A DNA stretch of 64,000 nt from Parcubacteria group bacterium LiPW_30 (GTDB lineage: Bacteria > Patescibacteriota > Minisyncoccia > Phycocordibacterales > VMEP01). The DNA lies in NCBI GenBank assembly GCA_007375595.1, contig VMEP01000001.1:479184-543183 (forward strand), read 5' to 3'. The notes under the pieces were generated by a model. The model was not told the origin of the DNA. It worked only from the letters and a program-made list of their open reading frames with translations, and did not search any database. Position numbers and translations under genes: made by a program. The first letter of the stretch is position 1. The number at the start of each line of letters is the position of its first letter. Below, one piece after another: positions 6,771-43,690 of the stretch.

Positions 6771-7448
6771 ATGGATTCTCATGGAACACCCTCTTGTACC
6801 AACGGGCAATTTGCTACTTTGGCGAGCCGTATTGTCACTGCTTTGCCGAAGGCGATAAAACTGACAGGTCTTGATCCGAAAGTTATCCTCAACCACACAA
6901 GCCAGGGGGAGCGTCTCTCTCTCGCTGTCGCCGAAGCAATCAACATGTTGTACAACGGAAGCGCTAAAACGATTCCGGTGGATGCGGATTTCATTTACGT
7001 TACGGAAGTAACGGTTCCGGCGATAACGAAACGCATGGACCCGAAGGAGTTTTTCAAAAATTCTGCCGGCTGTGATTTCCGGATATTGCCGTCTGTTAGC
7101 GCAATTGATTCGGCGCCGGAGGCCAGTTTTGAGGTTTTTCGTCTCATGCGCAATGTTCACGAGTCAGACATTGTTGAAAAACTCAAGGACTACGATCTTG
7201 CCGAGTGGTACCACTTTGCGGTCCTTGTTGAGAATCAGGTTGACGGGAACGATGGACCGCTTACCATAAACGGGAGAGCAAACATCTTCCACGTTCGAGG
7301 TGGTAGTGATGAAGTTTTCATCTTTGGCGCCCACTGGAAGCCAGCTGGTTTTGACGAGTGGGAAACAAACGAATACCTCCCCGAAGAGGTGTCCCTGGCG
7401 GGCAGGTGGCGTGCTGGTAGCCTCGTTTTTCTCCGGCTTCGACCGTAG
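6771..7448 (+). CDS. Hypothetical protein (225 aa), GC-rich ORFan between uvrB and uvrA
   Basis: RBS AAAGGAA before the ATG and an intrinsic terminator downstream. About 50% GC against about 35% background. No recognisable motif. Confidence 0.5.
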   Translation: MDSHGTPSCTNGQFATLASRIVTALPKAIKLTGLDPKVILNHTSQGERLSLAVAEAINMLYNGSAKTIPVDADFIYVTEVTVPAITKRMDPKEFFKNSAGCDFRILPSVSAIDSAPEASFEVFRLMRNVHESDIVEKLKDYDLAEWYHFAVLVENQVDGNDGPLTINGRANIFHVRGGSDEVFIFGAHWKPAGFDEWETNEYLPEEVSLAGRWRAGSLVFLRLRP

Positions 7449-7472
7449 CTCTCTCTCGTTGTTGCAATGCCA

Positions 7473-7500
7473 AAGCCCCTTCTCGGGGCTTTGTTTTTTA
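7473..7500 (+). terminator. Intrinsic terminator (AAAGCCCC-TTCT-CGGGGCTTT plus T7)
   Basis: Stem-loop followed by TGTTTTTT. Confidence 0.65.
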
Positions 7501-7537
7501 CATCTTATTCATATATAGTTCACTCATATATACCCCT

Positions 7538-10171
7538 ATGAATGGTCGCGGGGTAGTTTTTAGCGTCATTATGAAAAAACCTGAACATAAAGAAATAGAT
7601 AAAATAATCGTCAAAGGGGCGAGAACTCATAATCTTAAAAATGTTACTGTTGAAATGCCACGTAATAAGATGGTTGTTTTTACTGGGTTATCTGGTTCAG
7701 GTAAATCATCTCTTGCTTTTGATACTATTTTTGCTGAAGGGCAACGTCGTTATGTTGAGTCTCTTTCTGCTTATGCTCGACAATTTTTACATCAAATGCA
7801 AAAGCCGGATGTTGATGAGATAATCGGACTTTCACCTGCAATTTCAATTGACCAAAAATCTCGCTCAAACAATCCTCGTTCAACAGTCGCGACTATTACT
7901 GAAATATACGATTACCTCCGTGTTCTTTATGCGCGTATTGGTAAACCATATTGTTTAGTTTGCGGAGAAAAAATTGAAAAACTTACAACCGAGGAGATTG
8001 TAAGTTTTGTTGTTGAGAAAATAGAAACAGCCACTCATTTTAAAGAGAAAAAAGTTTTAGGTGTTAAATATAGTGATGCAACAGTGCAGATTTTTTCTCC
8101 ACTTGTACGCGGGCGAAAAGGGGAATATTACCAAATGCTTTACGACCTTCTTTCTCGTGGTTATACAAAAGTGCGTGTGGACGGAGAATTAAAAAATCTT
8201 CGTGAGAGAATCGCTCTTTCAAAAACAAAAAAACATACGATTGAGGTTCTCGTTGATGAAATTGGTGTAGTTGAATTTAAAGATAATCAAAAACAAGCAG
8301 AGACAAGACTTGCTGAAGCGATAGAGCGCGCAGTTCTAGAATCAGAGGGATTGGTTTCGGGAGTGGTTTCAGGTGAAGAGTTTATTATGTCGGCTAGATT
8401 TTCTTGCCCTAAAGATGGATTTTCTTATCCAGAAATTGAACCGAGATTATTTTCGTTTAATTCGCCATACGGGGCTTGCCCGAAGTGTAATGGTTTAGGC
8501 ACTAAACATTTGTTTGGAGATGAGCCGTGTGATACGTGTGCTGGCGCGCGCTTGAGGCCAGAGGCTTTGAATGTGTACATAGGAGGACCAAAAGGGGTCG
8601 GCAAGAACATAGTTGATTTTACTGATCTATCAATTTTAAAGGCGAATGATTTCGTTAAAGGATTAAAGCTTACAGCTAAAGAAAAAAATATTGCTAGTGT
8701 TGTTTTTAAAGAAATTGAAGCAAGGCTTACTTTCATGCTCGACGTTGGTCTTGATTACCTAACACTCAATCGTCGCGCTAATACGCTTTCTGGTGGTGAA
8801 GCGCAGCGTATTAGGCTTGCCTCACAGCTTGGTTCTCGTTTGGTAGGGGCGTTATATGTTCTTGATGAACCAACAATTGGGCTTCATCAACGCGACAATG
8901 ATCGTTTAATAAAAACACTTCAAGATTTGCGTAATATGGGCAACACAATAATTGTTGTTGAACATGACGAAGATACAATTTTTTCAGCAGATTATCTTGT
9001 TGACATTGGTCCAGGTGCTGGAATTCACGGAGGGAATATTGTTGTCGCTGGTGATCTAGAAGAATTGTTAACCGCCAAGAAAAATGATTCCAAATCTTTA
9101 ACGCTCGCGTATCTTCGTGGAGAGGTAAAAATTGAGGTGCCAGAGGGAAGGCGAGACAAAGACAAAGGAACTCTTCGAATTGCTGGAGGGAAAGTTTTTA
9201 ATATAAAGAATCTTAATGTTGACGTTCCGCTCGGCAGACTTTCTATCGTGACAGGGGTATCTGGTTCTGGAAAATCGTCTTTCCTTTATGAAATTTTATA
9301 TCGCAATTTACAAGCGCGACTTGAGCGCCGTTATCGAAGTAATAAAATCTATAACTGCTCTGGTTTTACTGGAACAGAATACCTTTCGCGCGTGATAATG
9401 ATTAATCAATCTCCAATCGGGAGAACACCAAGGTCAAACCCAGCCACTTATACTGGCTCATTTACGTTTATTCGCGAATTATTCGCTTCGACAGAAGAGG
9501 CACGTACACGAGGGTGGAAGGCCAATAGATTTTCTTTTAATGTGAAAGGTGGACGTTGTGAGGCATGCCAAGGAAACGGAGAAATCGCCGTAGAAATGCA
9601 CTTTTTACCTACAGTTTATGTAACTTGTGATATTTGTAATGGTAAAAGATTTGACAAAGAAACTCTCCATGTTAAATACAAAAAGAAAAATATCCACGAT
9701 ATTTTAAAAATGACGGTTGAGGAAGCACTTACATTTTTTGAAGATATTCCAGCAATTTACGACAGAATAAAAACACTCTCTGATGTTGGGTTGGGTTATT
9801 TGGAACTCGGACAATCAGCAACAACTCTTTCTGGCGGGGAAGCACAGCGTGTAAAAATATCGTCTGAACTTTATCGTCCACATGTTGAAAAAACGATTTA
9901 CCTCTTAGATGAACCGACAGTTGGCTTGCATTACGAAGATGTTCGTAAGCTTATAGAAATTTTGCAAAAACTTGTTGATAAGGGTAATACAGTTGTCGTG
10001 ATTGAACACAATATGGATGTTATAAAAAGCGCTGATTATGTTTTAGATTTTGGACCCGAAGGAGGAGATGGTGGTGGTAATCTTGTTGCTAAAGGGACAC
10101 CGGAAGATATCGCAAATAGTACGAAATCTCATACTGGGAAATATTTGAAAAAAGTTTTACGTAAAAATTAA
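7538..10171 (+). CDS. uvrA: Excinuclease ABC subunit A
   Basis: Two ABC ATPase modules (GLSGSGKSS / [14 protein letters not shown] signatures) and zinc-finger Cys clusters. Alternative start at 7571 (MKKPEHK). Confidence 0.9.
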
Positions 10172-10194
10172 TTTTGGAGGTTAAACCTCCAAAA
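10172..10194 (+). terminator. Palindromic hairpin TTTTGGAGGTT-TAA-ACCTCCAAAA after uvrA
   Basis: Perfect palindrome with a weak T-tract. Possibly bidirectional. Confidence 0.4.
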
Positions 10195-10212
10195 TTAATA
10201 AACTTATGTTGA

Positions 10213-10254
10213 TAAAAAATAAATGCAAAAGGGCGACGCAATAAGCGTCGCCCT
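10213..10254 (-). terminator. Intrinsic terminator for the minus-strand gene (AGGGCGACGC-AATAA-GCGTCGCCCT plus T-tract on minus strand)
   Basis: 10-bp GC stem. The A-tract on the + strand is the T-tract on the minus strand. Confidence 0.6.
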
Positions 10255-10279
10255 AGTATTTTGCCGAAGGTGCTTTACC

Positions 10280-10699
10280 TTAGGCTGCTTGTTTCTTCTC
10301 GTCGGGAATTGCTTTGTGTATGAACGGGTTTATGACCCGACACCACTCTTCCCAGAGCTCTCTCGTGGCTTTCACGTGAGTTGACTCATATTGCCCCCAT
10401 ATTTCCCCCATGGTTACCCAGAAGTGTTCGCTTCTGATGATACACTCGTCTCCGAACAACTTTCTGATTTGATCGTTGTTTTCTGCCGAGACGAAGATCG
10501 AACCGCTTTCTCCAGAGAAATAAATCTCGATACTTTCCCTGGTGATTTTTATTGCGCTGATCTCCGCCTCAACAAAGAGGGAAGCGAGCTTGTGTAGCTC
10601 GTGACAACTGTTTTCGGCCATTTCGGCCATGAATGACGCGATTATCTCCCTACCGCGGAAATCCATTTTTTTCATTAGGAGCCCTTTCACTAGAAACAA
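10280..10699 (-). CDS. Hypothetical protein (132-139 aa), GC-rich ORFan between uvrA and uvrC
   Basis: Likely start at the second ATG (10675, MKKMDFRG), which has AAAGGG upstream. About 50% GC. No recognisable domain. Confidence 0.45.
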   Translation of the reverse strand: MFLVKGLLMKKMDFRGREIIASFMAEMAENSCHELHKLASLFVEAEISAIKITRESIEIYFSGESGSIFVSAENNDQIRKLFGDECIIRSEHFWVTMGEIWGQYESTHVKATRELWEEWCRVINPFIHKAIPDEKKQAA

Positions 10700-10807
10700 A
10701 AACGACGCTCAGTTGAGCGTTTCCGTTTAATACTATACTATACAAATTACAAAATTGCAACCCTGTGTTGAGTCAGCTTGGTACGGGATAGGGTTCGCTA
10801 AAAATTT

Positions 10808-12040
10808 ATGATCATTAAAGATTTTTCAAAATTTAAACTGCCCACAAAACCAGGTATATACCGCTTTTTAGGAGTGCGCAACGAAGTTTTATATGTTGGT
10901 AAAGCAACGTCACTTAAGGAACGTGTACGAAGTTATTTCTCAAAAGACCTAAACAAAATGCGTGGGGCACAAATTGGCGCCATGGTTTTGCAAGCGCGTA
11001 AGATTGATTGGCAGACTACCGATTCAGTTCTTGAAGCACTTTTACTTGAAGCAAGTTTAATTAAAAAATGGAAACCAAAGTATAATACTAAAGAAAAAGA
11101 CGACAAGAGTTTTAATTGTGTCGTTATAACTAACGAGCTCTTTCCAAAAGTTCTTGTTATCAGAAAGAGAGAAATTGATTTTGATGAACTGAGAGCCAGA
11201 AACTATAAGCTGAAAACTATCTTCGGTCCGTTCCCAAATGGCGGGGCTTTGCGCGACGCGATGAAATTAATACGAAAGATTTTTCCATTTCGTGATAAAT
11301 GTAATCCATCATCCAAAAATTCAAAACCATGCTTTGAGAGACAAATTGGATTATGCCCCGGTGTGTGTACCGGAGAAATTTCTAGTGCCGACTATAAAAA
11401 ACACATCAAACTCCTTTCGTTATTTTTTGAAGGAAAAAAGAGAACACTTTTATCGGAGATTAAAAAGAATATGAAGCAGTCGGCAAAAGAGCAAAAATTT
11501 GAAGAAGCACAACGTTTAAAGAAAATCCTTTTTTCACTTGAACATATCCAAGATATCGCTTTAATTAAACGTGAGCCGGAAGCTTTTAATGAAGATGTTT
11601 TTAGGATTGAAGCGTATGATATTGCGCATATCTCTGGGAAGCAAATGGTTGGGGTGATGACGGTGGTTGAAAATGGAGAAGTTAAAAAATCAGATTACCG
11701 TAAATTTAAAGTAAGCGGTTTTTCGAAGGCGAATGATACTGGTGCGCTGTCCGAGGTTTTAAGACGTAGATTTAATCACGGAGAATGGAAGTTTCCCAAC
11801 CTTATTGTCGTAGATGGCGGTCGTGCACAGCTAAATATCGCGCATAGTATTGCAAAGGAGGTGAATATTAAGACCAAAATTGTTTCAGTTGTTAAAGACG
11901 AAAAACATCGTGCCCGAGAGATTTTTGGTGATGTAGATATATGGAAAGGTAAGGAGAGACAGATTTTCCTTGCAAATAGTGAGGCACATAGATTTGCAAT
12001 TAAGTATCACCGGGAGTTAAGAGATAAAATTCGTAAATAA
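10808..12040 (+). CDS. uvrC: Excinuclease ABC subunit C, short form (GIY-YIG plus UVR plus RNase H-like domains; no C-terminal HhH)
   Basis: GIY-YIG motif PGIYRFLG...LYVGKA, a Cys-rich CFERQIGLCPGVC region and an RNase H-like IEAYDIAHISG...VVDGGRAQL. Only 410 aa against about 600 in model bacteria. Confidence 0.8.
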   Translation: MIIKDFSKFKLPTKPGIYRFLGVRNEVLYVGKATSLKERVRSYFSKDLNKMRGAQIGAMVLQARKIDWQTTDSVLEALLLEASLIKKWKPKYNTKEKDDKSFNCVVITNELFPKVLVIRKREIDFDELRARNYKLKTIFGPFPNGGALRDAMKLIRKIFPFRDKCNPSSKNSKPCFERQIGLCPGVCTGEISSADYKKHIKLLSLFFEGKKRTLLSEIKKNMKQSAKEQKFEEAQRLKKILFSLEHIQDIALIKREPEAFNEDVFRIEAYDIAHISGKQMVGVMTVVENGEVKKSDYRKFKVSGFSKANDTGALSEVLRRRFNHGEWKFPNLIVVDGGRAQLNIAHSIAKEVNIKTKIVSVVKDEKHRAREIFGDVDIWKGKERQIFLANSEAHRFAIKYHRELRDKIRK

Positions 12041-12058
12041 CTTTGCTATAATGTTTTT

Positions 12059-13030
12059 ATGACAGCAATTCGAGTCGGAGTGCTCCGAGGAGGAGTTTCA
12101 AATGAGTATGATGTTTCCCTAAAAACAGGGGGTAATGTGCTTAATGTTTTGCCAAAAAATAAATATAAAGGGATAGACGTTCTTATGGAAAAGGACGGAA
12201 CTATTGTTGTAAACGGAATTACATCAAAATTTAGCGATTTATCAAAACACGTTGATGTCGTTTTTAACGCACTTCATGGAGAATTCGGTGAGGATGGAAG
12301 GGTTCAGCAACTTTTAGAAAGTACAGGAATTCCATATACGGGATCGTCTGCAATGCCATCATCTCTTGGGATGAATAAGGTGATTTCAAAAGAATTTGCC
12401 GAGAGGGCGGGGATGAATGTTCCAAAGCATATTTTGATTAAGCGTGAAGAAGTTTCTGATATACCAGAATTTTCTCTTGGTTTATTTAAAAGTATTTCAC
12501 AACCAAGAATAATAAAACCAATTTTCGGTGGTTCTTCTGTTGGGATGACGTTTGCATCAAATTTAGAAAAATTAAAAGAGGGAATTGAAGAAGGGTTTAA
12601 GCATGAAGACGTGATAATGCTCGAAGAACACATTTTAGGGAAAGAAGTTACGTGTGGAGTTATTGATAATTTTAGGGGACAAAAAAGTTACGCACTTCCA
12701 GTTGTTGAAATTCAACCACCAAAAGAAAATAGTTTTTTTGATTACGATGCAAAGTATAGCGGAAAAAGTAGAGAGATTTGTCCTTCTTACTTACCAGCCG
12801 AATTGAAAAAAAAGATTGAAGAGATGGCGGTGTTGATTCATGAGCAATTAGGGTTAAGGCATTATTCTCGTTCGGATTTTATTATCGGCAGAAATAAGGT
12901 TTATTTTATTGAAGTTAATACACTCCCGGGTCTTACAGAAGAATCTCTTTTGCCAAAATCCCTTGAAGTTATTGGTTTGAATATGCCTGATTTTGTTGAT
13001 CATGTGATTAGACTTGCTCTCTTAAAATAA
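12059..13030 (+). CDS. ddl: D-alanine--D-alanine ligase
   Basis: ATP-grasp Ddl architecture: N-terminal GGVSNEYDVSL and C-terminal EVNTLPGLT. Confidence 0.85.
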   Translation: MTAIRVGVLRGGVSNEYDVSLKTGGNVLNVLPKNKYKGIDVLMEKDGTIVVNGITSKFSDLSKHVDVVFNALHGEFGEDGRVQQLLESTGIPYTGSSAMPSSLGMNKVISKEFAERAGMNVPKHILIKREEVSDIPEFSLGLFKSISQPRIIKPIFGGSSVGMTFASNLEKLKEGIEEGFKHEDVIMLEEHILGKEVTCGVIDNFRGQKSYALPVVEIQPPKENSFFDYDAKYSGKSREICPSYLPAELKKKIEEMAVLIHEQLGLRHYSRSDFIIGRNKVYFIEVNTLPGLTEESLLPKSLEVIGLNMPDFVDHVIRLALLK

Positions 13031-13152
13031 TAAGGTAGTATATTCAGGTAGTCGGAAGTTTGAAAGTTTATAAAGTCCATAAAGTACGGAGATAAAAGGT
13101 TTAGTTTTAGGTTACTTTTAACTTTGAGACTTTTTAACTTTTAACTAAAGTA

Positions 13153-13225
13153 GGGCCGTTAGCTCATCTGGTAGAGCACCGCATTTGCAATGCGGGGGTG
13201 GCAGGTTCGAGTCCTGTACGGTCCA
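13153..13225 (+). tRNA. tRNA-Ala (anticodon TGC)
   Basis: Manual fold: acceptor GGGCCGT with G3:U70 (Ala identity), anticodon loop TTTGCAA, T-loop TTCGAGT, discriminator A. No encoded CCA. Confidence 0.9.
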
Positions 13226-13232
13226 CAAAATT

Positions 13233-13257
13233 AATCCGCGTAAGCGGATTTTTTGTT
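13233..13257 (+). terminator. Hairpin AATCCGC-GTAA-GCGGATT plus T6 after tRNA-Ala
   Basis: Stem-loop directly followed by TTTTTTG. Confidence 0.5.
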
Positions 13258-13660
13258 GGAACGTAAAAAACTGCTGGGAGCAGTTTTGCCAGGACTCGAA
13301 AAGCGGAGCGGGGTACCCATGCACCAGCATGGGTCGCGAGCTGCGGACACGAGAAAAATTTTCGACGGAAAATTTTTACTCGCGGAAGAGTCCTGTACGG
13401 TCCACAATGATTCGCTGAGCACATTGTGTAGTTATTTGTGCGAAGCATCATTGTCAGACCTTACTGATGAGAAAGCCGGAGCGCGACGGCGCGAGTCGGG
13501 TGAGAAAGCGAAGAATGAAGCTTTCGCAAGGTCGGACTGAGCGAAGGCGAAGGAGACGGGGTCGCGGGTTTTGCTAGCAAGCAAAAACCTGTGACCGCAC
13601 AAATTTTCAGCAGAAAATTATGGAAAGTAAAAGGTTGCTATTATTTTTAATAATTACTAA
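13258..13660 (+). other. GC-rich, hairpin-dense non-coding region (candidate structured RNA or degenerate integrated element)
   Basis: No convincing ORF in any frame, only overlapping short ORFs. Multiple stem-loops, including CTGCT-GGG-AGCAG, CCCATGC-ACCA-GCATGGG, AAAATTTTC-GACG-GAAAATTTT and GGTTTTGCT-AGC-AAGCAAAAACC. Contains modules shared with other intergenic loci. Confidence 0.3.
13389..13408 (+). repeat. Exact 20-bp direct repeat of the tRNA-Ala 3' end (GAGTCCTGTACGGTCCACAA, also at 13209-13228)
   Basis: Identical 20-mer 160 bp downstream of the tRNA, the pattern expected of an attL/attR-type remnant. Confidence 0.8.
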
Positions 13661-13669
13661 TATAAACAT

Positions 13670-14443
13670 ATGAAAAAAATATTATCTATATTTGCTTTAA
13701 TCCTTATGTTTGCAGCCGCTGAATCTGCCTACGCGACGCTCATTCCTTATACCTCTCAAGAAAGACCGGAATTGGGTGAGATGTACAAAGTTACGCAGGA
13801 AGTCAAAAAGGGCTGGAATCTCATCCCAGCTTTTAATATGAACTACGACCTTTCTGGTTATGACCGAGGTAGTGTTCCGAAATCTGAATACAAAGCGAGA
13901 GGCCCAATATCTTTTGATAGTGAAATACAAAAGGAAAATATACAAGCATTGTTTTACTACTCAGCTAATCAAAATAAATACTTGAATTTTTGGCCAAATG
14001 TAAACGAGGCGTGGGATGGTATTGGAAAAGATGTCTACGCTTTAGGCATAGACCCAAACAATGAACAAGACACAAAAATTCATAATTACCTTTTGACAAG
14101 CGGAATGTGGTTGTACTCCAACAAAGATGGAATTCTGAAATACGAAATGTTTGCGGGGCAAATGAAGGAGTTAATGAACAAAAGAAAATTACTCAAAGGT
14201 TGGAATTTTGTTGTTGTAACTCCTGACATGGGAACAAAAACTTTTGAAGAAATAGTGGGCACATGCAAAATAGAAAAATCATACTACTACGATAGTGTTG
14301 ATACTAAACAATGGATATCTTTTCCGGTTGATCGCATCAAAGACGCAACAGGGATAGTATGGGTTGTGAAAGTTTCAAATAATTGCCAACTTGGAACGAG
14401 TGGTTCCGTCCCTGTTGCGCCATTACCACAATTGCCAAATTAA
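13670..14443 (+). CDS. Hypothetical secreted protein (257 aa)
   Basis: Signal-peptide-like N-terminus (MKKILSIFALILMFAAAESAYA). No recognisable domain. Confidence 0.5.
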   Translation: MKKILSIFALILMFAAAESAYATLIPYTSQERPELGEMYKVTQEVKKGWNLIPAFNMNYDLSGYDRGSVPKSEYKARGPISFDSEIQKENIQALFYYSANQNKYLNFWPNVNEAWDGIGKDVYALGIDPNNEQDTKIHNYLLTSGMWLYSNKDGILKYEMFAGQMKELMNKRKLLKGWNFVVVTPDMGTKTFEEIVGTCKIEKSYYYDSVDTKQWISFPVDRIKDATGIVWVVKVSNNCQLGTSGSVPVAPLPQLPN

Positions 14444-14448
14444 AATTT

Positions 14449-14715
14449 ATGAACAAATGGATAGTCGTTATAATTATATTGGTCTTGGTGGCGCTTGGCA
14501 TAGGTTTTTATCTGAACAAAAAAAATAACGATTCAACTTTGTATCCGCCAGCATTTCCAAGCGATGAATCCTCTCAAGCCACTCAATCTAACAAAGAAGT
14601 TATAAATAATTTTGGTGTAGACAAAACAACTTCGACGCAAACGTCACTAACACAGAAAAAAACTGAAACACAAAAACCGTCGGCAATACCTAAACCCCCA
14701 GAACTTCCACAGTAA
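14449..14715 (+). CDS. Small membrane-anchored protein with low-complexity T/S/P/Q-rich tail
   Basis: Internal ATG at 14449 (MNKWIVVIIILVLVALGIGF) avoids overlap with the upstream gene. One TM helix. Confidence 0.4.
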   Translation: MNKWIVVIIILVLVALGIGFYLNKKNNDSTLYPPAFPSDESSQATQSNKEVINNFGVDKTTSTQTSLTQKKTETQKPSAIPKPPELPQ

Positions 14716-14770
14716 TAGTTTACTTTAGTCCACCAAAACCACTTTAAAATATTTGTATTGACGCACATCT

Positions 14771-15109
14771 ATGCCAACCGTAAATATCTTCTACAAAGAT
14801 TCAGAAAAAGAACCGCCACTCCAAGCATTAGTGGGCGGACTTAAGGATTATATCGCTGAAGAATTAACCTGTGGAGATATTAAGTTAAAACCAAACGAAG
14901 TAAGCATCCGTCTTATTGAGGTTACTGGCGGTGAAATGATCGGTGCCGTAGAAGTTGAGATAACTGCTCACTCTTTTGCAGAACGAGTGAAAAAACAGGA
15001 TGAAATTTGTCTTAAAATTATGGAGTATATACAAAAAGAAAACCCTTCGCTGAGAGAAGTTAAAGTTTGGTTGCAACTTTCTGAATTAGGACATAGTTGG
15101 AAAGAGTAA
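14771..15109 (+). CDS. Hypothetical protein (112 aa)
   Basis: Intact ORF with no recognisable motif. Confidence 0.4.
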   Translation: MPTVNIFYKDSEKEPPLQALVGGLKDYIAEELTCGDIKLKPNEVSIRLIEVTGGEMIGAVEVEITAHSFAERVKKQDEICLKIMEYIQKENPSLREVKVWLQLSELGHSWKE

Positions 15110-15179
15110 CTTCCCAAACAGCCAATTCTTTTATAATTTTGTTTCAATCAACACAGACGTAGTCCACAAAATAAAGAAG

Positions 15180-15215
15180 CCAGATATCAAAGTATCTGGT
15201 GTTTTTTATTTTTGT
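15180..15215 (+). terminator. Intrinsic terminator (CCAGATA-TCAAAG-TATCTGG plus T-rich tail)
   Basis: 7-bp stem followed by TGTTTTTTATTTTTG. Confidence 0.6.
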
Positions 15216-15273
15216 ATGTGGCTGAGTTCCTGTTAAATTGTTTTTGCAAAAATGTTAAAATATCACCATAATT

Positions 15274-15468
15274 ATGTTTTCTTTAGAACCACAATTTTTT
15301 GATATTTTCGGTTTTGTTGTTTTTGTCTATATTACTTTATTGTCTTGGTTATTATTGCGTAGAATTTATGTAAAAAAGTGGATGATTATTGTTTTGTTTT
15401 TAATAGGAGTTATAGGCCTATTGGTTGATGGTTCTGTTGTTTATGTTTATTATTTGAAATCATTTTAA
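15274..15468 (+). CDS. Small two-TM membrane protein (64 aa)
   Basis: Hydrophobic ORF; could be spurious in AT-rich DNA. Confidence 0.3.
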   Translation: MFSLEPQFFDIFGFVVFVYITLLSWLLLRRIYVKKWMIIVLFLIGVIGLLVDGSVVYVYYLKSF

Positions 15469-15478
15469 TTTTTTATAT

Positions 15479-15820
15479 ATGAATCAATTAGAACAGCCAT
15501 CTTCAAAAAAACCAGAGTTGTCGGCGGTTGATAGTGAAAAAGTTTTTTTAGTGCGTAATTTTTTACAGCTTTATCATGCTCAAAGAAAGACAGGCGTAGA
15601 TGCTGAACTGTATTCCCCAAATAAAGAAGAAAATGAAATTATAGCAGAAGAAACAAGAAATTTCGGTAGTGAATTTCATGATTGGATTGATACAGAAGAA
15701 GGTAAGTTCGTAGTTGAAAATTACACCAAAAACCATTCCTTAGAAGAGGTTGGAAAATTCGAAGATATGGAAGACGTTATGAAGAAGTACGAAGCGTATT
15801 GCGCCAAAACACTCCATTAA
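15479..15820 (+). CDS. Hypothetical acidic protein (113 aa)
   Basis: Intact ORF with no motif. Confidence 0.4.
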   Translation: MNQLEQPSSKKPELSAVDSEKVFLVRNFLQLYHAQRKTGVDAELYSPNKEENEIIAEETRNFGSEFHDWIDTEEGKFVVENYTKNHSLEEVGKFEDMEDVMKKYEAYCAKTLH

Positions 15821-15824
15821 TTTT

Positions 15825-16085
15825 TTACTTACTCTCTTCGGTTTTGTCCTTCATTTTACTAAACACAAAGATATAGAGTATTTCAAGAATTCCAATAGTG
15901 TTTATTAAGAGCATGGCGATAAACCACCACTTCTTTCCTAGCTGTGCTGATTTCCAGAGGGCTAGCCCCTTCCACACCAAACTCCAAACTAAAAGCACTG
16001 CGAACAAAAAACTCAGGTATGGAATTAATTGGGGGTTGCTTGCTATGTATTGATCTAAAAAACTTTGTGAAAAAATTTGGTTCAT
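15825..16085 (-). CDS. Small membrane protein (86 aa)
   Basis: Two predicted TM helices; convergent with the upstream + strand genes. Confidence 0.4.
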   Translation of the reverse strand: MNQIFSQSFLDQYIASNPQLIPYLSFLFAVLLVWSLVWKGLALWKSAQLGKKWWFIAMLLINTIGILEILYIFVFSKMKDKTEESK

Positions 16086-20353: not shown

Positions 20354-20426
20354 GTACTCTTTAGTTAATACCTGTTACCTCTAAATGATCTTTTTATAAC
20401 CCAAAGGTGTTAACTGGACGTGGCAC

Positions 20427-20454
20427 TTGACAAATAAAATAGACCTGCTATAGT
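20427..20454 (+). promoter_or_regulatory. sigma70-like promoter TTGACA-16 nt-TATAGT
   Basis: Near-consensus hexamers read directly from the sequence. Confidence 0.5.
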
Positions 20455-20460
20455 GGGCGA

Positions 20461-20727
20461 TAGTGATGAGGGAACCAGCCTTGGGTGCAAACCCGAGGTG
20501 GGACCGGAAAGTGGTGAACTCATAACGGGATGATTGCAAAAGTCCCTTCTGTTCTTTAAGCGCAGAATGCGCAACGTGGTCTTCTGTTTAGTCAGTCTGG
20601 TATCGTGAGCCGGTCAAAATAGCCACGACGCCTTCAATCTGGCACACGTTAGTACGGAAAAACTATTGGTCTTCGGATCACCAGGGCCCCCAGCACAACT
20701 TCGGTTGAGTGGGGCCCTTTTCATTTT
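20461..20727 (+). ncRNA. Candidate structured non-coding RNA of unknown class (about 270 nt)
   Basis: Promoter upstream, and a strong terminator at the 3' end (GGGCCCC...GGGGCCC plus TTTTCATTTT). About 52% GC, with no ORF of 60 aa or more in any frame. No conserved RNase P, tmRNA or SRP motifs seen. Confidence 0.4.
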
Positions 20728-24351: not shown

Positions 24352-24445
24352 CCCGCATACACCCCTAAAATACCTTGCGCAGATTGACGAATCGAGCAGA
24401 GCGAAAATTCAGCAGAATTTTACGTGTGTATTTTAGTGGTGTATG
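24352..24445. repeat. Intergenic hairpin element, copy B (module 1 plus an inner AAAATTC-AGCA-GAATTTT hairpin, closed by an 18-bp outer stem)
   Basis: The outer stem CATACACCCCTAAAATAC pairs with GTGTATTTTAGTGGTGTATG. The first 32 nt are identical to 38652-38683. Confidence 0.5.
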
Positions 24446-38651: not shown

Positions 38652-38683
38652 CCCGCATACACCCCTAAAATACCTTGCGCAGA
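38652..38683. repeat. Intergenic element copy C: 32-nt module 1 (CCCGCATACACCCCTAAAATACCTTGCGCAGA), identical to 24352-24383
   Basis: Exact 32-mer shared with locus B. A longer variable body (to about 38850) contains the module CATTACGGAGCGCGACGG, shared with loci A and D. Confidence 0.5.
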
Positions 38684-38866
38684 CTTGTGAATTTTCTTAA
38701 AAATTCCCCTTTTTCCATTTTAAAAACATTACGGAGCGCGACGGTATTTCGTATCTAAATACCCATAAGATACAGCTGAAAGACATTGCGGAATGCGGCG
38801 GCATGAGCATAGCAAAAATTTAGCAAAGTTTTATGCGTGTCTTTCAGATGTATCTTAATAAGAAAT

Positions 38867-43573: not shown

Positions 43574-43602
43574 AATAGGAATTTTGTCTTTTGAACCCCT
43601 GT

Positions 43603-43690
43603 ATTCGCCATTAAAATACATTACGGAGTCTGACGAGGCGAGTATAGTAAATTTTCAGCAGAAAATTATACGCGTATTTTAATGGCGAAT
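43603..43690. repeat. Intergenic hairpin element, copy D (17-bp perfect outer stem ATTCGCCATTAAAATAC/GTATTTTAATGGCGAAT enclosing CATTACGGAG... and an AATTTTC-AGCA-GAAAATT hairpin)
   Basis: Perfect 17-bp inverted repeat. The inner 21-mer AAATTTTCAGCAGAAAATTAT is identical to 13601-13621. Confidence 0.5.

Follow-up and report, generated by a model that had tools for sequence, protein, structure and literature searches.

The tRNA-Ala locus and its inserted module

We have analysed a 64-kb stretch of the genome of Parcubacteria group bacterium LiPW_30 (the window; all coordinates are positions in it) in which a tRNA-Ala gene is followed by a copy of its own 3' end. The genes around the locus are uvrA, uvrC, ddl and mltG, as identified by a Pfam scan, with the first three lying upstream, and related records are in keeping with a Patescibacteria (Paceibacterota-like) chromosome. 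The duplicated segment is a 20-mer, GAGTCCTGTACGGTCCACAA, which occurs twice and exactly on the + strand, at 13209-13228 and 13388-13407. We find that this 20-base repeat is the closing arm of an intact folded module, of roughly 150 bases, inserted at the 3' end of tRNA-Ala. The module adjoining the tRNA (unit A) occupies 13229-13407 and belongs to a family of structured units, apparently undescribed, that is widespread behind many tRNA genes in Patescibacteria, a group of ultra-small, uncultured bacteria. The features of the locus are as follows, R1 being a covariance model built on the conserved core of the family.

13124-13151, + strand: promoter-like site TTGAGA-16-TAAAGT just 5' of the tRNA (consensus scan, a pattern match only)
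13153-13225, + strand: tRNA-Ala (UGC), CCA not encoded (ARAGORN; Rfam tRNA, 64 bits)
13209-13228, + strand: direct repeat copy 1 (X), the tRNA-Ala 3' end (exact-match search)
13233-13255, unstranded: hairpin and T-run, a bidirectional terminator and the first part of the module (terminator scan)
13258-13264, + strand: left strand of P1, GGAACGT, an inverted copy of the acceptor 3' strand forming 6/7 pairs with ACGGTCC (minimum free energy (MFE) fold)
13266-13287, + strand: P2 hairpin with a GGGA-type loop, between the left-arm halves (folds)
13290-13297, + strand: left strand of P3, CAGGACTC, an inverted copy of GAGTCCTG (3' part of the T-loop and 3' strand of the T-stem)
13298-13387, + strand: conserved core S, comprising a GAAAAG junction, P4, P5 and a GGAAG junction (R1 match; covariation)
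13388-13407, + strand: direct repeat copy 2 (X), which serves as the module's right arm and closes P3 and P1 (exact match, fold, R1)
13408-13623, + strand: decayed second module (R1 31.6 bits, E = 3e-7, plus a weak match)

The exact duplication had been noticed in an earlier, sequence-only reading of this DNA. It is real, with zero matches in 100 shuffles even when up to 3 mismatches are allowed; its second copy had been placed at 13389-13408, one base off. Copy 1 spans G57 of the T-loop, the 3' strand of the T-stem, the 3' strand of the acceptor stem and the discriminator, followed by CAA. The 412 bp of non-coding DNA from 13229 to 13640 have a G+C content of 51-54%, against 37% for the whole window, and fold well above shuffles (z = -7.4). 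Only mechanical open reading frames (ORFs) overlap the 160-bp interval that separates the two copies, and several hairpins and a bidirectional terminator (13233-13250) are present within it. The earlier reading had overlooked three further elements of the locus, namely an inverted copy of the tRNA-Ala 3' end (13258-13264 and 13290-13297), the decayed second module, and an additional 8-nt remnant of the tRNA end, GTCCACCA, at 14728-14735.

The 179-bp module is composed, in order, of a replacement trailer and terminator for the tRNA (AATTAATCC terminator), an inverted tRNA end split by a hairpin, a core of ~90 nt and a direct copy of the tRNA end. The core contains two helices joined by purine-rich junctions: P4 (GCGG-AG-CG...CG-CGAG-CTGC) and P5, an AU-rich hairpin with a CGACGG loop. 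The inverted tRNA-end segments are predicted by the MFE fold to pair with copy 2 and to close this two-helix core, and copy 2 would therefore be a strand of a helix and not a loose leftover. Paired in this way, the arms would rebuild on the tRNA-sense strand the double-stranded acceptor/T-stem helix of the tRNA, with the core closed by it. The left strand of P1 is also found in relatives, and the position of P2 is occupied at 24 metagenome loci by hairpins of ~9 bp whose sequences are unrelated. The terminator of unit A differs completely from that at the same position in the related locus L002 and is absent in another, L140 (both described below). A consensus scan finds no promoter-like site before unit A, and a terminator precedes it.

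R1 matches unit A at 13289-13396 with 87.1 bits (E = 1.8e-23) and the decayed second unit at 13526-13598 with 31.6 bits. Searching the rest of the 64-kb window gave nothing beyond the locus, the one weak match (6.9 bits, E = 5.7) lying inside the decayed unit. This second module has lost its right arm and still shows a leader hairpin, a left arm with mutations, two fragments of the core (13468-13524 and 13526-13598) and, after them, a second P5-like hairpin. The core subtypes of the two units are homologous (GGAGCG...CGCGAG with an AU-rich hairpin; GGGGTCG-hairpin-GTGACCG). The second module also contains the string CUGAUGAG, which we considered as part of a hammerhead ribozyme and rejected, the string being absent from the other units examined and giving no Rfam match.

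Insertion, stacking and strain variation

The sequence-only reading had taken the duplication to be of att type, arising by insertion at the tRNA 3' end, and had proposed looking for an empty site at the tRNA-Ala locus of related genomes. Both ideas are borne out by the comparison with relatives, in which the contents of the locus vary between strains. In the closely related strain L140 the tRNA end runs straight into TGATTCAT, which in the window comes after copy 2, and L140 is thus a precise empty site for the 179-bp module. This junction is followed in L140 by a complete unit (67 bits) and then by a gene for a 112-aa protein, and the 257-aa and 88-aa ORFs of the window are also missing. L141-L143 carry the same first unit as L140, then a 180-aa methyltransferase and a truncated unit, and meet the window sequence at 15232; the first unit scores 62 bits with R1 in L141 and L142, and the L143 contig starts inside it and holds only its 3' end. 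L002, whose Ddl is 93% identical to that of the window, has a 100% identical tRNA-Ala followed by 137 bp that consist of its own terminator and one unit. Homology between L002 and the window restarts at GTCCACAAA (window 15162, L002 7231), the window having 1930 bp in place of these 137. The contents between the tRNA and the distal remnants therefore differ between L002, L140 and L141.

A third, partial copy of the repeat had previously been pointed out at 15162-15172. This copy (GTCCACAAAAT, with ACGTA on its 5' side) is present and is not a chance match, since it is exactly there that homology with L002 resumes; it marks the distal junction of the variable region, whose parts beyond the second module are listed here.

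13624-14727, + strand: strain-specific segment with the 257-aa and 88-aa ORFs, absent from L140, L141 and L002
13670-14443, + strand: 257-aa ORF, no protein family match
14449-14715 from ATG (14383-14715 from TTG in the ORF list), + strand: 88-aa ORF, no protein family match
14728-14735, + strand: the tRNA 3'-end remnant GTCCACCA, at the junction with the 112-aa gene segment (L140 comparison)
14736-15161, + strand: segment with the 112-aa gene (14771-15109), absent in L002 and L141
15162-15172, + strand: distal tRNA 3'-end remnant GTCCACAAAAT (restart of L002 homology)
15179-15208, unstranded: displaced, presumably original, tRNA terminator (terminator scan)

In L002 and L140 the terminator at 15179-15208 is conserved as well, immediately behind the final copy of the tRNA end. 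At the site where the window keeps only the 8-nt remnant, the L140 unit has its complete right arm. Identity between the window and L140 is 88.8% upstream of the tRNA-Ala locus (window 12017-13226) and 98.9% downstream of the remnant (14728-15970), and this jump at 14728 shows that the breakpoint of a recent recombination or transfer coincides with the tRNA-end copy. The second unit of the window is a decayed orthologue of the intact L140/L141 unit, which implies that the module adjoining the tRNA is the latest insertion. Modules thus stack beside the tRNA, with unit A missing from relatives and the older, outer material decaying.

The 112-aa protein belongs to a conserved Paceibacterota family with ~300 homologues, no Pfam domain and a Met-Pro N-terminus. 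In L264 (3392-3839) the gene for a homologue, with the same leader, abuts the 3' end of a tRNA-Ala(GGC); in other genomes it has no tRNA nearby. We considered the gene as mobile cargo and set this aside as ambiguous, the family being conserved in varied contexts with one case beside another tRNA-Ala.

Some further observations concern the same site in relatives. L001 (a Logan contig, SRR8863432) is identical to the window and ends at window position 13521, inside the decayed second module, which fits strain heterogeneity or repeats that break the assembly. L002 carries at 7350-7865 a type IV pilin-like gene (N-terminus FTLIELLVVIAIIGIL) that is not in the window and is flanked by two copies of the promoter-like AAAAATGTTAAAATA, which precedes a 64-aa ORF. 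In L003 (7113-7500), a relative with no module, tRNA-Ala is directly followed by a small ORF pair that by eye reads as HicB/HicA-like, and which may be another sign that the tRNA-Ala site collects variable genes.

A structured family behind many tRNA genes

A protein search with Ddl yielded 12 Ddl-tRNA-Ala loci, all of them in species-representative genomes. One or two modules follow the tRNA in 9 of the 12, the window's own type included, and in those 9 the module arms match each genome's own tRNA-Ala, even where acceptor stems differ. We also scanned metagenomes for T-arms whose reverse complement occurs 58-88 nt further on, which gave at least 120 loci; the 97 listed loci referred to below are those among 120 matches listed with one anchor in a tRNA. 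The tRNA isotypes at these loci are Arg, Val, Met, Asn, Ala, Leu, Lys, Gln, Tyr, Pro, Trp, Ile and Ser. At 52 of them the tRNA 3' end recurs as a direct copy 119-216 nt downstream, and a T-run terminator stands before the first unit at 56 and is missing at the other 41. The common layout is the tRNA, often a terminator, an inverted tRNA end, a GAAAG-type junction, the core and a direct tRNA end. Units of the family are ~85-160 nt long, with a fixed architecture and no gene inside; several core subtypes occur, and tandem units are common (L010, L023, L031, L072, L127).

Applied to ~0.97 Mb of fetched tRNA loci, R1 finds 48 matches besides the window copy. In at least 45 of these there is a tRNA upstream on the same strand, either 46-86 nt away or with the unit in tandem behind another unit, and the tRNAs include Thr, Gly, Pro, Val and Leu tRNAs that the search pattern had not selected. 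The remaining three have no called tRNA: one lies at a contig start and two coincide with a T-arm pattern match. The family thus follows many tRNA isotypes, always on the tRNA strand. R1 gave no match in 0.91 Mb of viral contigs containing chance matches to the pattern. Rfam 15, run with gathering and permissive E-value thresholds on the window and 26 related loci of several core subtypes, returned tRNA matches only, and ARAGORN detected neither a one-piece nor a two-piece transfer-messenger RNA (tmRNA) in the window. Full-text literature searches turned up no description of modules of this kind and gave only general work on partial tRNAs and tycheposons.

The core is conserved as a structure. 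The RNAalifold prediction for 14 cores consists of the arm helix, a P4 in two parts and a long P5, with double compensatory changes in 20 of the 26 predicted pairs. In an alignment of 33 sequences, 92.2% of paired cells are occupied by pairs, compared with 64.7% in shuffles and at most 47% with slid partners, and 221 cells are changed on both sides, compared with 68 in shuffles. Covariation scores 0.613; shuffled alignments score 0.179 (none of 500 reaching 0.613) and slid partners at most 0.114. Of 31 sequences, 20 retain a G.U pair at the base of P5. Fitting this alignment to the model makes these numbers lean towards structure. Of 62 units, 56 fold better on the tRNA-sense (+) strand than on its complement (p = 4e-11), and purines make up 73% of unpaired bases. 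Selection on the structure therefore acts on a single strand, either RNA or folded single-stranded DNA. Core pairing is maintained by compensatory changes, and both the conserved G.U pair and the purine-rich loops show that the strand which folds is the tRNA-sense one. The two properties that would identify a structured single-stranded element, compensatory changes well above controls and strand asymmetry, are both found.

The arms behave differently from the core. The direct repeats of the family have a median length of 19 nt. They start 1-5 nt into the T-loop and usually end 0-4 nt past the discriminator; the flanking bases of the gene are copied as they stand, with no CCA bias, which points to duplication of the locus at the DNA level and not to mimicry of the mature tRNA. 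A CCA difference between tRNA and distal copy was sought as a marker of polarity, and none was found. The arms are thus target-specific, matching the local tRNA together with flank bases outside the mature tRNA. In L127, cores of ~107 nt behind tRNA-Leu and tRNA-Val are ~99% identical, whereas the terminators, left arms, P2 hairpins and right arms of the two units differ, each set fitting its own tRNA. Core similarity likewise crosses tRNA types elsewhere (83% identity between Tyr- and Ala-linked cores, 72% between Trp- and Gly-linked cores), and pairs of cores from the same genome often exceed the 95th percentile of between-genome pairs. This independence of tRNA type implies that the core spreads among tRNA loci or is homogenised among them.

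Three further arrangements were seen in the metagenome loci. Behind tRNA-Val(GAC) in L036, L044, L045, L052, L067, L070, L092 and L106, there is a terminator and then the tRNA 3' end in inverted orientation, in one to three tandem copies. In the L036 and L045 arrays each inverted copy is followed by a different GC-rich structured segment of ~100 nt, and there is no direct copy. These arrays, several of which come from human-gut metagenome records, may represent a related class in the opposite orientation. A larger core subtype with tRNA-matched arms lies behind tRNA-Met or tRNA-Arg (L024, L057, L097, L110, L119, L122, L022, L035); it contains GGGTAAACCGGCATGGATGCCGGTTTAGC and CGGCCTGGAAnGAG-hairpin-CGAnTGGAAGGC and has no Rfam match. 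At the tRNA-Pro locus L072, on a 674-kb contig, there are at least two tandem repeats of ~141 bp; in each, an AT-rich spacer precedes a minimal core of 58 nt and the 3' end of tRNA-Pro, and another spacer starts after the second repeat.

Readings of the module and its relation to known systems

We interpret the module, with middling confidence, as a miniature, non-autonomous insertion element that targets tRNA 3' ends and whose function depends on a single-stranded fold. The earlier suggestion of a miniature element that used the tRNA-Ala attB comes close to the evidence, there being an insertion and no integrase, while the scar that was favoured there finds no support. In the mechanism that we envisage, a selfish element would enter by Campbell-type recombination across a core of ~19 bp that starts in the T-loop as the att cores of tRNA-targeting integrases do, with the recombinase acting in trans. 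The folded arm helix and the structured core would together be the cis-acting site of this recombinase, in the form of folded single-stranded DNA or of a read-through RNA made from the tRNA promoter. The element would bring its own tRNA 3' end and terminator, so that the insertion would be kept harmless.

Several points weigh against this interpretation. Site-specific integration accounts for the direct repeat and not for the inverted copy, it leaves unexplained how one core gains arms for a new tRNA, and gene conversion among resident units could mimic the spread of the core. The T-run terminator before 56 of the 97 listed first units argues against strong co-transcription, while being neutral for a role at the DNA level. 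The model-fitted alignment somewhat inflates the pair counts, with which MAFFT-based counts nevertheless agree. No recombinase was detected in the module or among the 29 window ORFs scanned against Pfam, and a regular-expression search for tyrosine-recombinase motifs was negative. All-against-all clustering of ORFs at the 97 listed loci, with the top clusters inspected, likewise yielded no recurrent recombinase neighbour, the clusters consisting of ordinary syntenic genes only (Ddl, CCA-adding enzyme, UvrC); the absence of an integrase reported in the sequence-only reading is confirmed by these scans. Nor did viral contigs or phage records contain a free or attP-like form. Two pattern scans of viral contigs gave reverse-strand tRNAs or chance matches only, and of the phage and plasmid search that had been proposed, the phage part, a blastn search of phage records with 13229-13640, found nothing, the plasmid collection not having been searched.

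A rather unlikely variant of the insertion hypothesis is that the modules are a new kind of mobile element, whose core, as RNA or as folded single-stranded DNA, directs insertion behind any tRNA, with both arms templated from the target and with no dedicated tRNA-specific integrase. The arms would then be one inverted and one direct copy of the target, with specificity for tRNA 3' ends, and there could be a small circle, possibly ordered X - terminator - X' - core, where X' is inverted X. Such self-reprogramming would explain the occurrence of one core with arms for different tRNAs in one genome, the non-tRNA flank bases in the arms, and tandem arrays that resemble unrolled circles.

It is also conceivable, though we are doubtful, that the modules are structured non-coding RNAs used by the host, which trail tRNA genes and are read through from the tRNA promoter. 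Here the insertion-like polymorphism would be secondary, and the arms would match the tRNA through local duplication and homogenisation by gene conversion. The arm helix might mimic an acceptor/T-stem minihelix, with RNase P, RNase Z or the CCA-adding enzyme releasing or marking the RNA, or the left arm might compete for the tRNA 3' half and control the maturation of read-through transcripts. An RNA would be in keeping with the strong strand-specific conservation of structure, the purine-rich loops and junctions, the GNRA-like loops and the conserved G.U, as well as with the placement of units always on the same strand as the tRNA and immediately 3' of it. A T-run terminator is missing at 41 of the 97 listed first units, and likewise in L140 and L141, where co-transcription is to be expected, but most first units lie behind a terminator and have no promoter of their own. 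Similarly, a unit persists at the Ddl-tRNA-Ala locus across lineages whose Ddl proteins are only 36-50% identical, yet copy number and core subtype vary between very close relatives, units decay in place (window 13408-13623), and only one of the three tRNAs in the window has a unit. The details of the arm helix are difficult to reconcile with a tRNA mimic: the direct repeat extends to flank bases outside the mature tRNA and has no tie to CCA, the replacement of the T-loop leaves no tRNA elbow, G3:U70 has become A3-U70 in the units inspected by eye (a few keep G3), and the helix pairs the discriminator too.

Two further explanations are both contradicted by the conserved, covarying core. That the 160-bp interval is a decayed remnant or excision scar of a larger integrative element (a prophage or island) with its attB in tRNA-Ala, as proposed in the sequence-only reading, is in our view highly improbable. 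Such an event classically leaves a direct repeat of a tRNA 3' end that begins in the T-loop, and the locus does vary between strains; partial tRNA duplication by integration has been described (bioRxiv 10.1101/2022.07.05.498093), as have stacked partial tRNAs in the tycheposon islands of Prochlorococcus (bioRxiv 10.1101/2020.12.28.424599). The interval is, however, a complete, high-scoring member of a family with fixed architecture that lies behind many tRNAs, and random decay would not leave shared boundaries and compensatory pairs. No distant tRNA-end copies bounding larger islands were found (none >450 nt downstream at the 97 listed loci), and the Pfam, motif and neighbour-clustering searches described above revealed no integrase fragments. 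The earlier reading had itself allowed that its case would fail if the repeat were part of a conserved structured RNA, and the repeat does form the closing helix of a conserved structure. We give equally little credence to a by-product of replication errors, with neither function nor mobility, in which template switching or fold-back priming at the terminator hairpin would produce the inverted copy and slippage the direct one. The left arm does continue the terminator palindrome, so that tRNA end, spacer and terminator are mirrored, and tandem arrays with identical terminators occur in L061, L072 and L127. Such errors would nonetheless leave unexplained a covarying core common to distant genomes and different tRNA types, and nearly identical cores behind different tRNAs.

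Among known systems, the module resembles tRNA-targeting integrative elements (P4-type elements with T-loop att cores; tycheposons, bioRxiv 10.1101/2020.12.28.424599; integrase-less derivatives like cis-mobilizable elements) in having a direct repeat that starts in the T-loop and ends a few bases past the gene, in supplying a new tRNA 3' end and in the strain variability of its locus. The absence of the tRNA-adjoining module from close relatives, with older material outward, likewise recalls stacked tRNA islands (bioRxiv 10.1101/2020.12.28.424599). Unlike these elements, the whole unit measures only ~110-200 bp and has no integrase or any other gene, contains an extra, inverted copy of the target and a conserved single-strand fold, and combines the same core with arms for many tRNAs. 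Of the hallmarks of a tRNA island or prophage, the flanking repeat (20/20) and an empty site (L140) are present, and an integrase or a fragment of one is not.

Integron attC sites and the attP(+) site of CTX-phi are recombination sites that act as folded single strands, in which two inverted core copies fold into a mimic of the duplex target. A module fold that rebuilds its duplex target would be reminiscent of these sites. As in them, inverted copies lie tens of nucleotides apart, structure is conserved above sequence and there is a strand-specific asymmetry, and module arrays, like attC arrays, anchor at one fixed site with the newest insertion beside the anchor. Membership of the attC class is nevertheless not indicated: the R''/R' consensus (RYYYAAC / GTTRRRY) is absent, and the module ends are of a GTGGAC...GTCCAC type that varies with the tRNA. 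There is no IntI gene beside the anchor (the upstream genes being uvrA, uvrC and ddl) and no dif/XerCD site; most modules have no ORF, the anchor is a tRNA 3' end, and sequence motifs of the core are conserved. An imperfect hairpin conserved on one strand is present but is not diagnostic of attC, because it is common to RNA genes.

Miniature inverted-repeat transposable elements (MITEs) and repetitive extragenic palindromic or bacterial interspersed mosaic elements are, like the modules, small, non-coding, bounded by inverted repeats, present in multiple copies per genome and highly structured. The modules differ from them in lying only behind tRNAs and not dispersed, and in the flanking duplication of ~19 bp. 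In contrast to those of MITEs, the terminal inverted repeats match the local tRNA and are not specific to the element, and the MITE combination of dispersed copies, element-specific terminal repeats and a short target duplication is thus not seen. With tRNA-like RNAs (the tmRNA domain; YrlA/Y RNAs, PMC4201824; mascRNA) the module shares an acceptor-like helix stacked on a T-stem-like helix that closes a larger fold. It differs from these RNAs in lacking a T-loop/D-loop elbow, in its paired discriminator, in having no Rfam match and in a helix that copies the neighbouring gene, flank bases included. An elbow, a free NCCA end and, for Ala, the identity pair G3:U70, the defining traits of a tRNA-like RNA, are not found, the T-loop being replaced by the core and the discriminator and next base being paired. 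The bridge RNA of IS110 and the omega RNA of TnpB and IscB combine a structured scaffold with target-matching segments. The module is also a structured scaffold joined to segments that match both strands of the target DNA, although in its case both target-matching segments correspond to the same target bases and are paired to one another. No IS110, TnpB or IscB gene was found nearby, either in the inspected top neighbour clusters of the 97 listed loci or in the Pfam scan of the 29 window ORFs.

If the modules are mobile, they would be the smallest known tRNA-targeted insertion elements and the first to join a single structured core to arms that match many different tRNA targets; the origin of the arms would then be in question, pointing to a trans-acting recombinase or to structure- or RNA-directed insertion. 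If they are instead RNAs used by the host, they would constitute a large and new class of structured RNAs linked to tRNA genes in Patescibacteria, a phylum for which, to our knowledge, the repertoire of non-coding RNAs is almost unknown. In both cases the modules account for GC-rich 'orphan' blocks between genes and for partial tRNA hits beside tRNA genes in metagenome-assembled genomes, and they mark strain-level recombination breakpoints, with the short-read contig L001 ending in one.

Three other parts of the window deserve mention. A block of ~320 nt at 20400-20725 is non-coding, GC-rich (~50% G+C) and has a strong terminator-like hairpin at its end; Rfam yields no match for it, and it folds no better than shuffles (z = -1.15). 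Between uvrA and uvrC lies another GC-rich block (10171-10808), flanked by hairpins. It carries an ORF on the reverse strand (10280-10699; 116 aa in the L001 and L140 calls) and may represent an inserted gene. Finally, a 41-nt sequence, CCCGCATACACCCCTAAAATACCTTGCGCAGATTGACGAAT, occurs three times in the window, at 24352-24392, 38652-38692 and 43598-43638, with identities of 100%, 90% and 68%.

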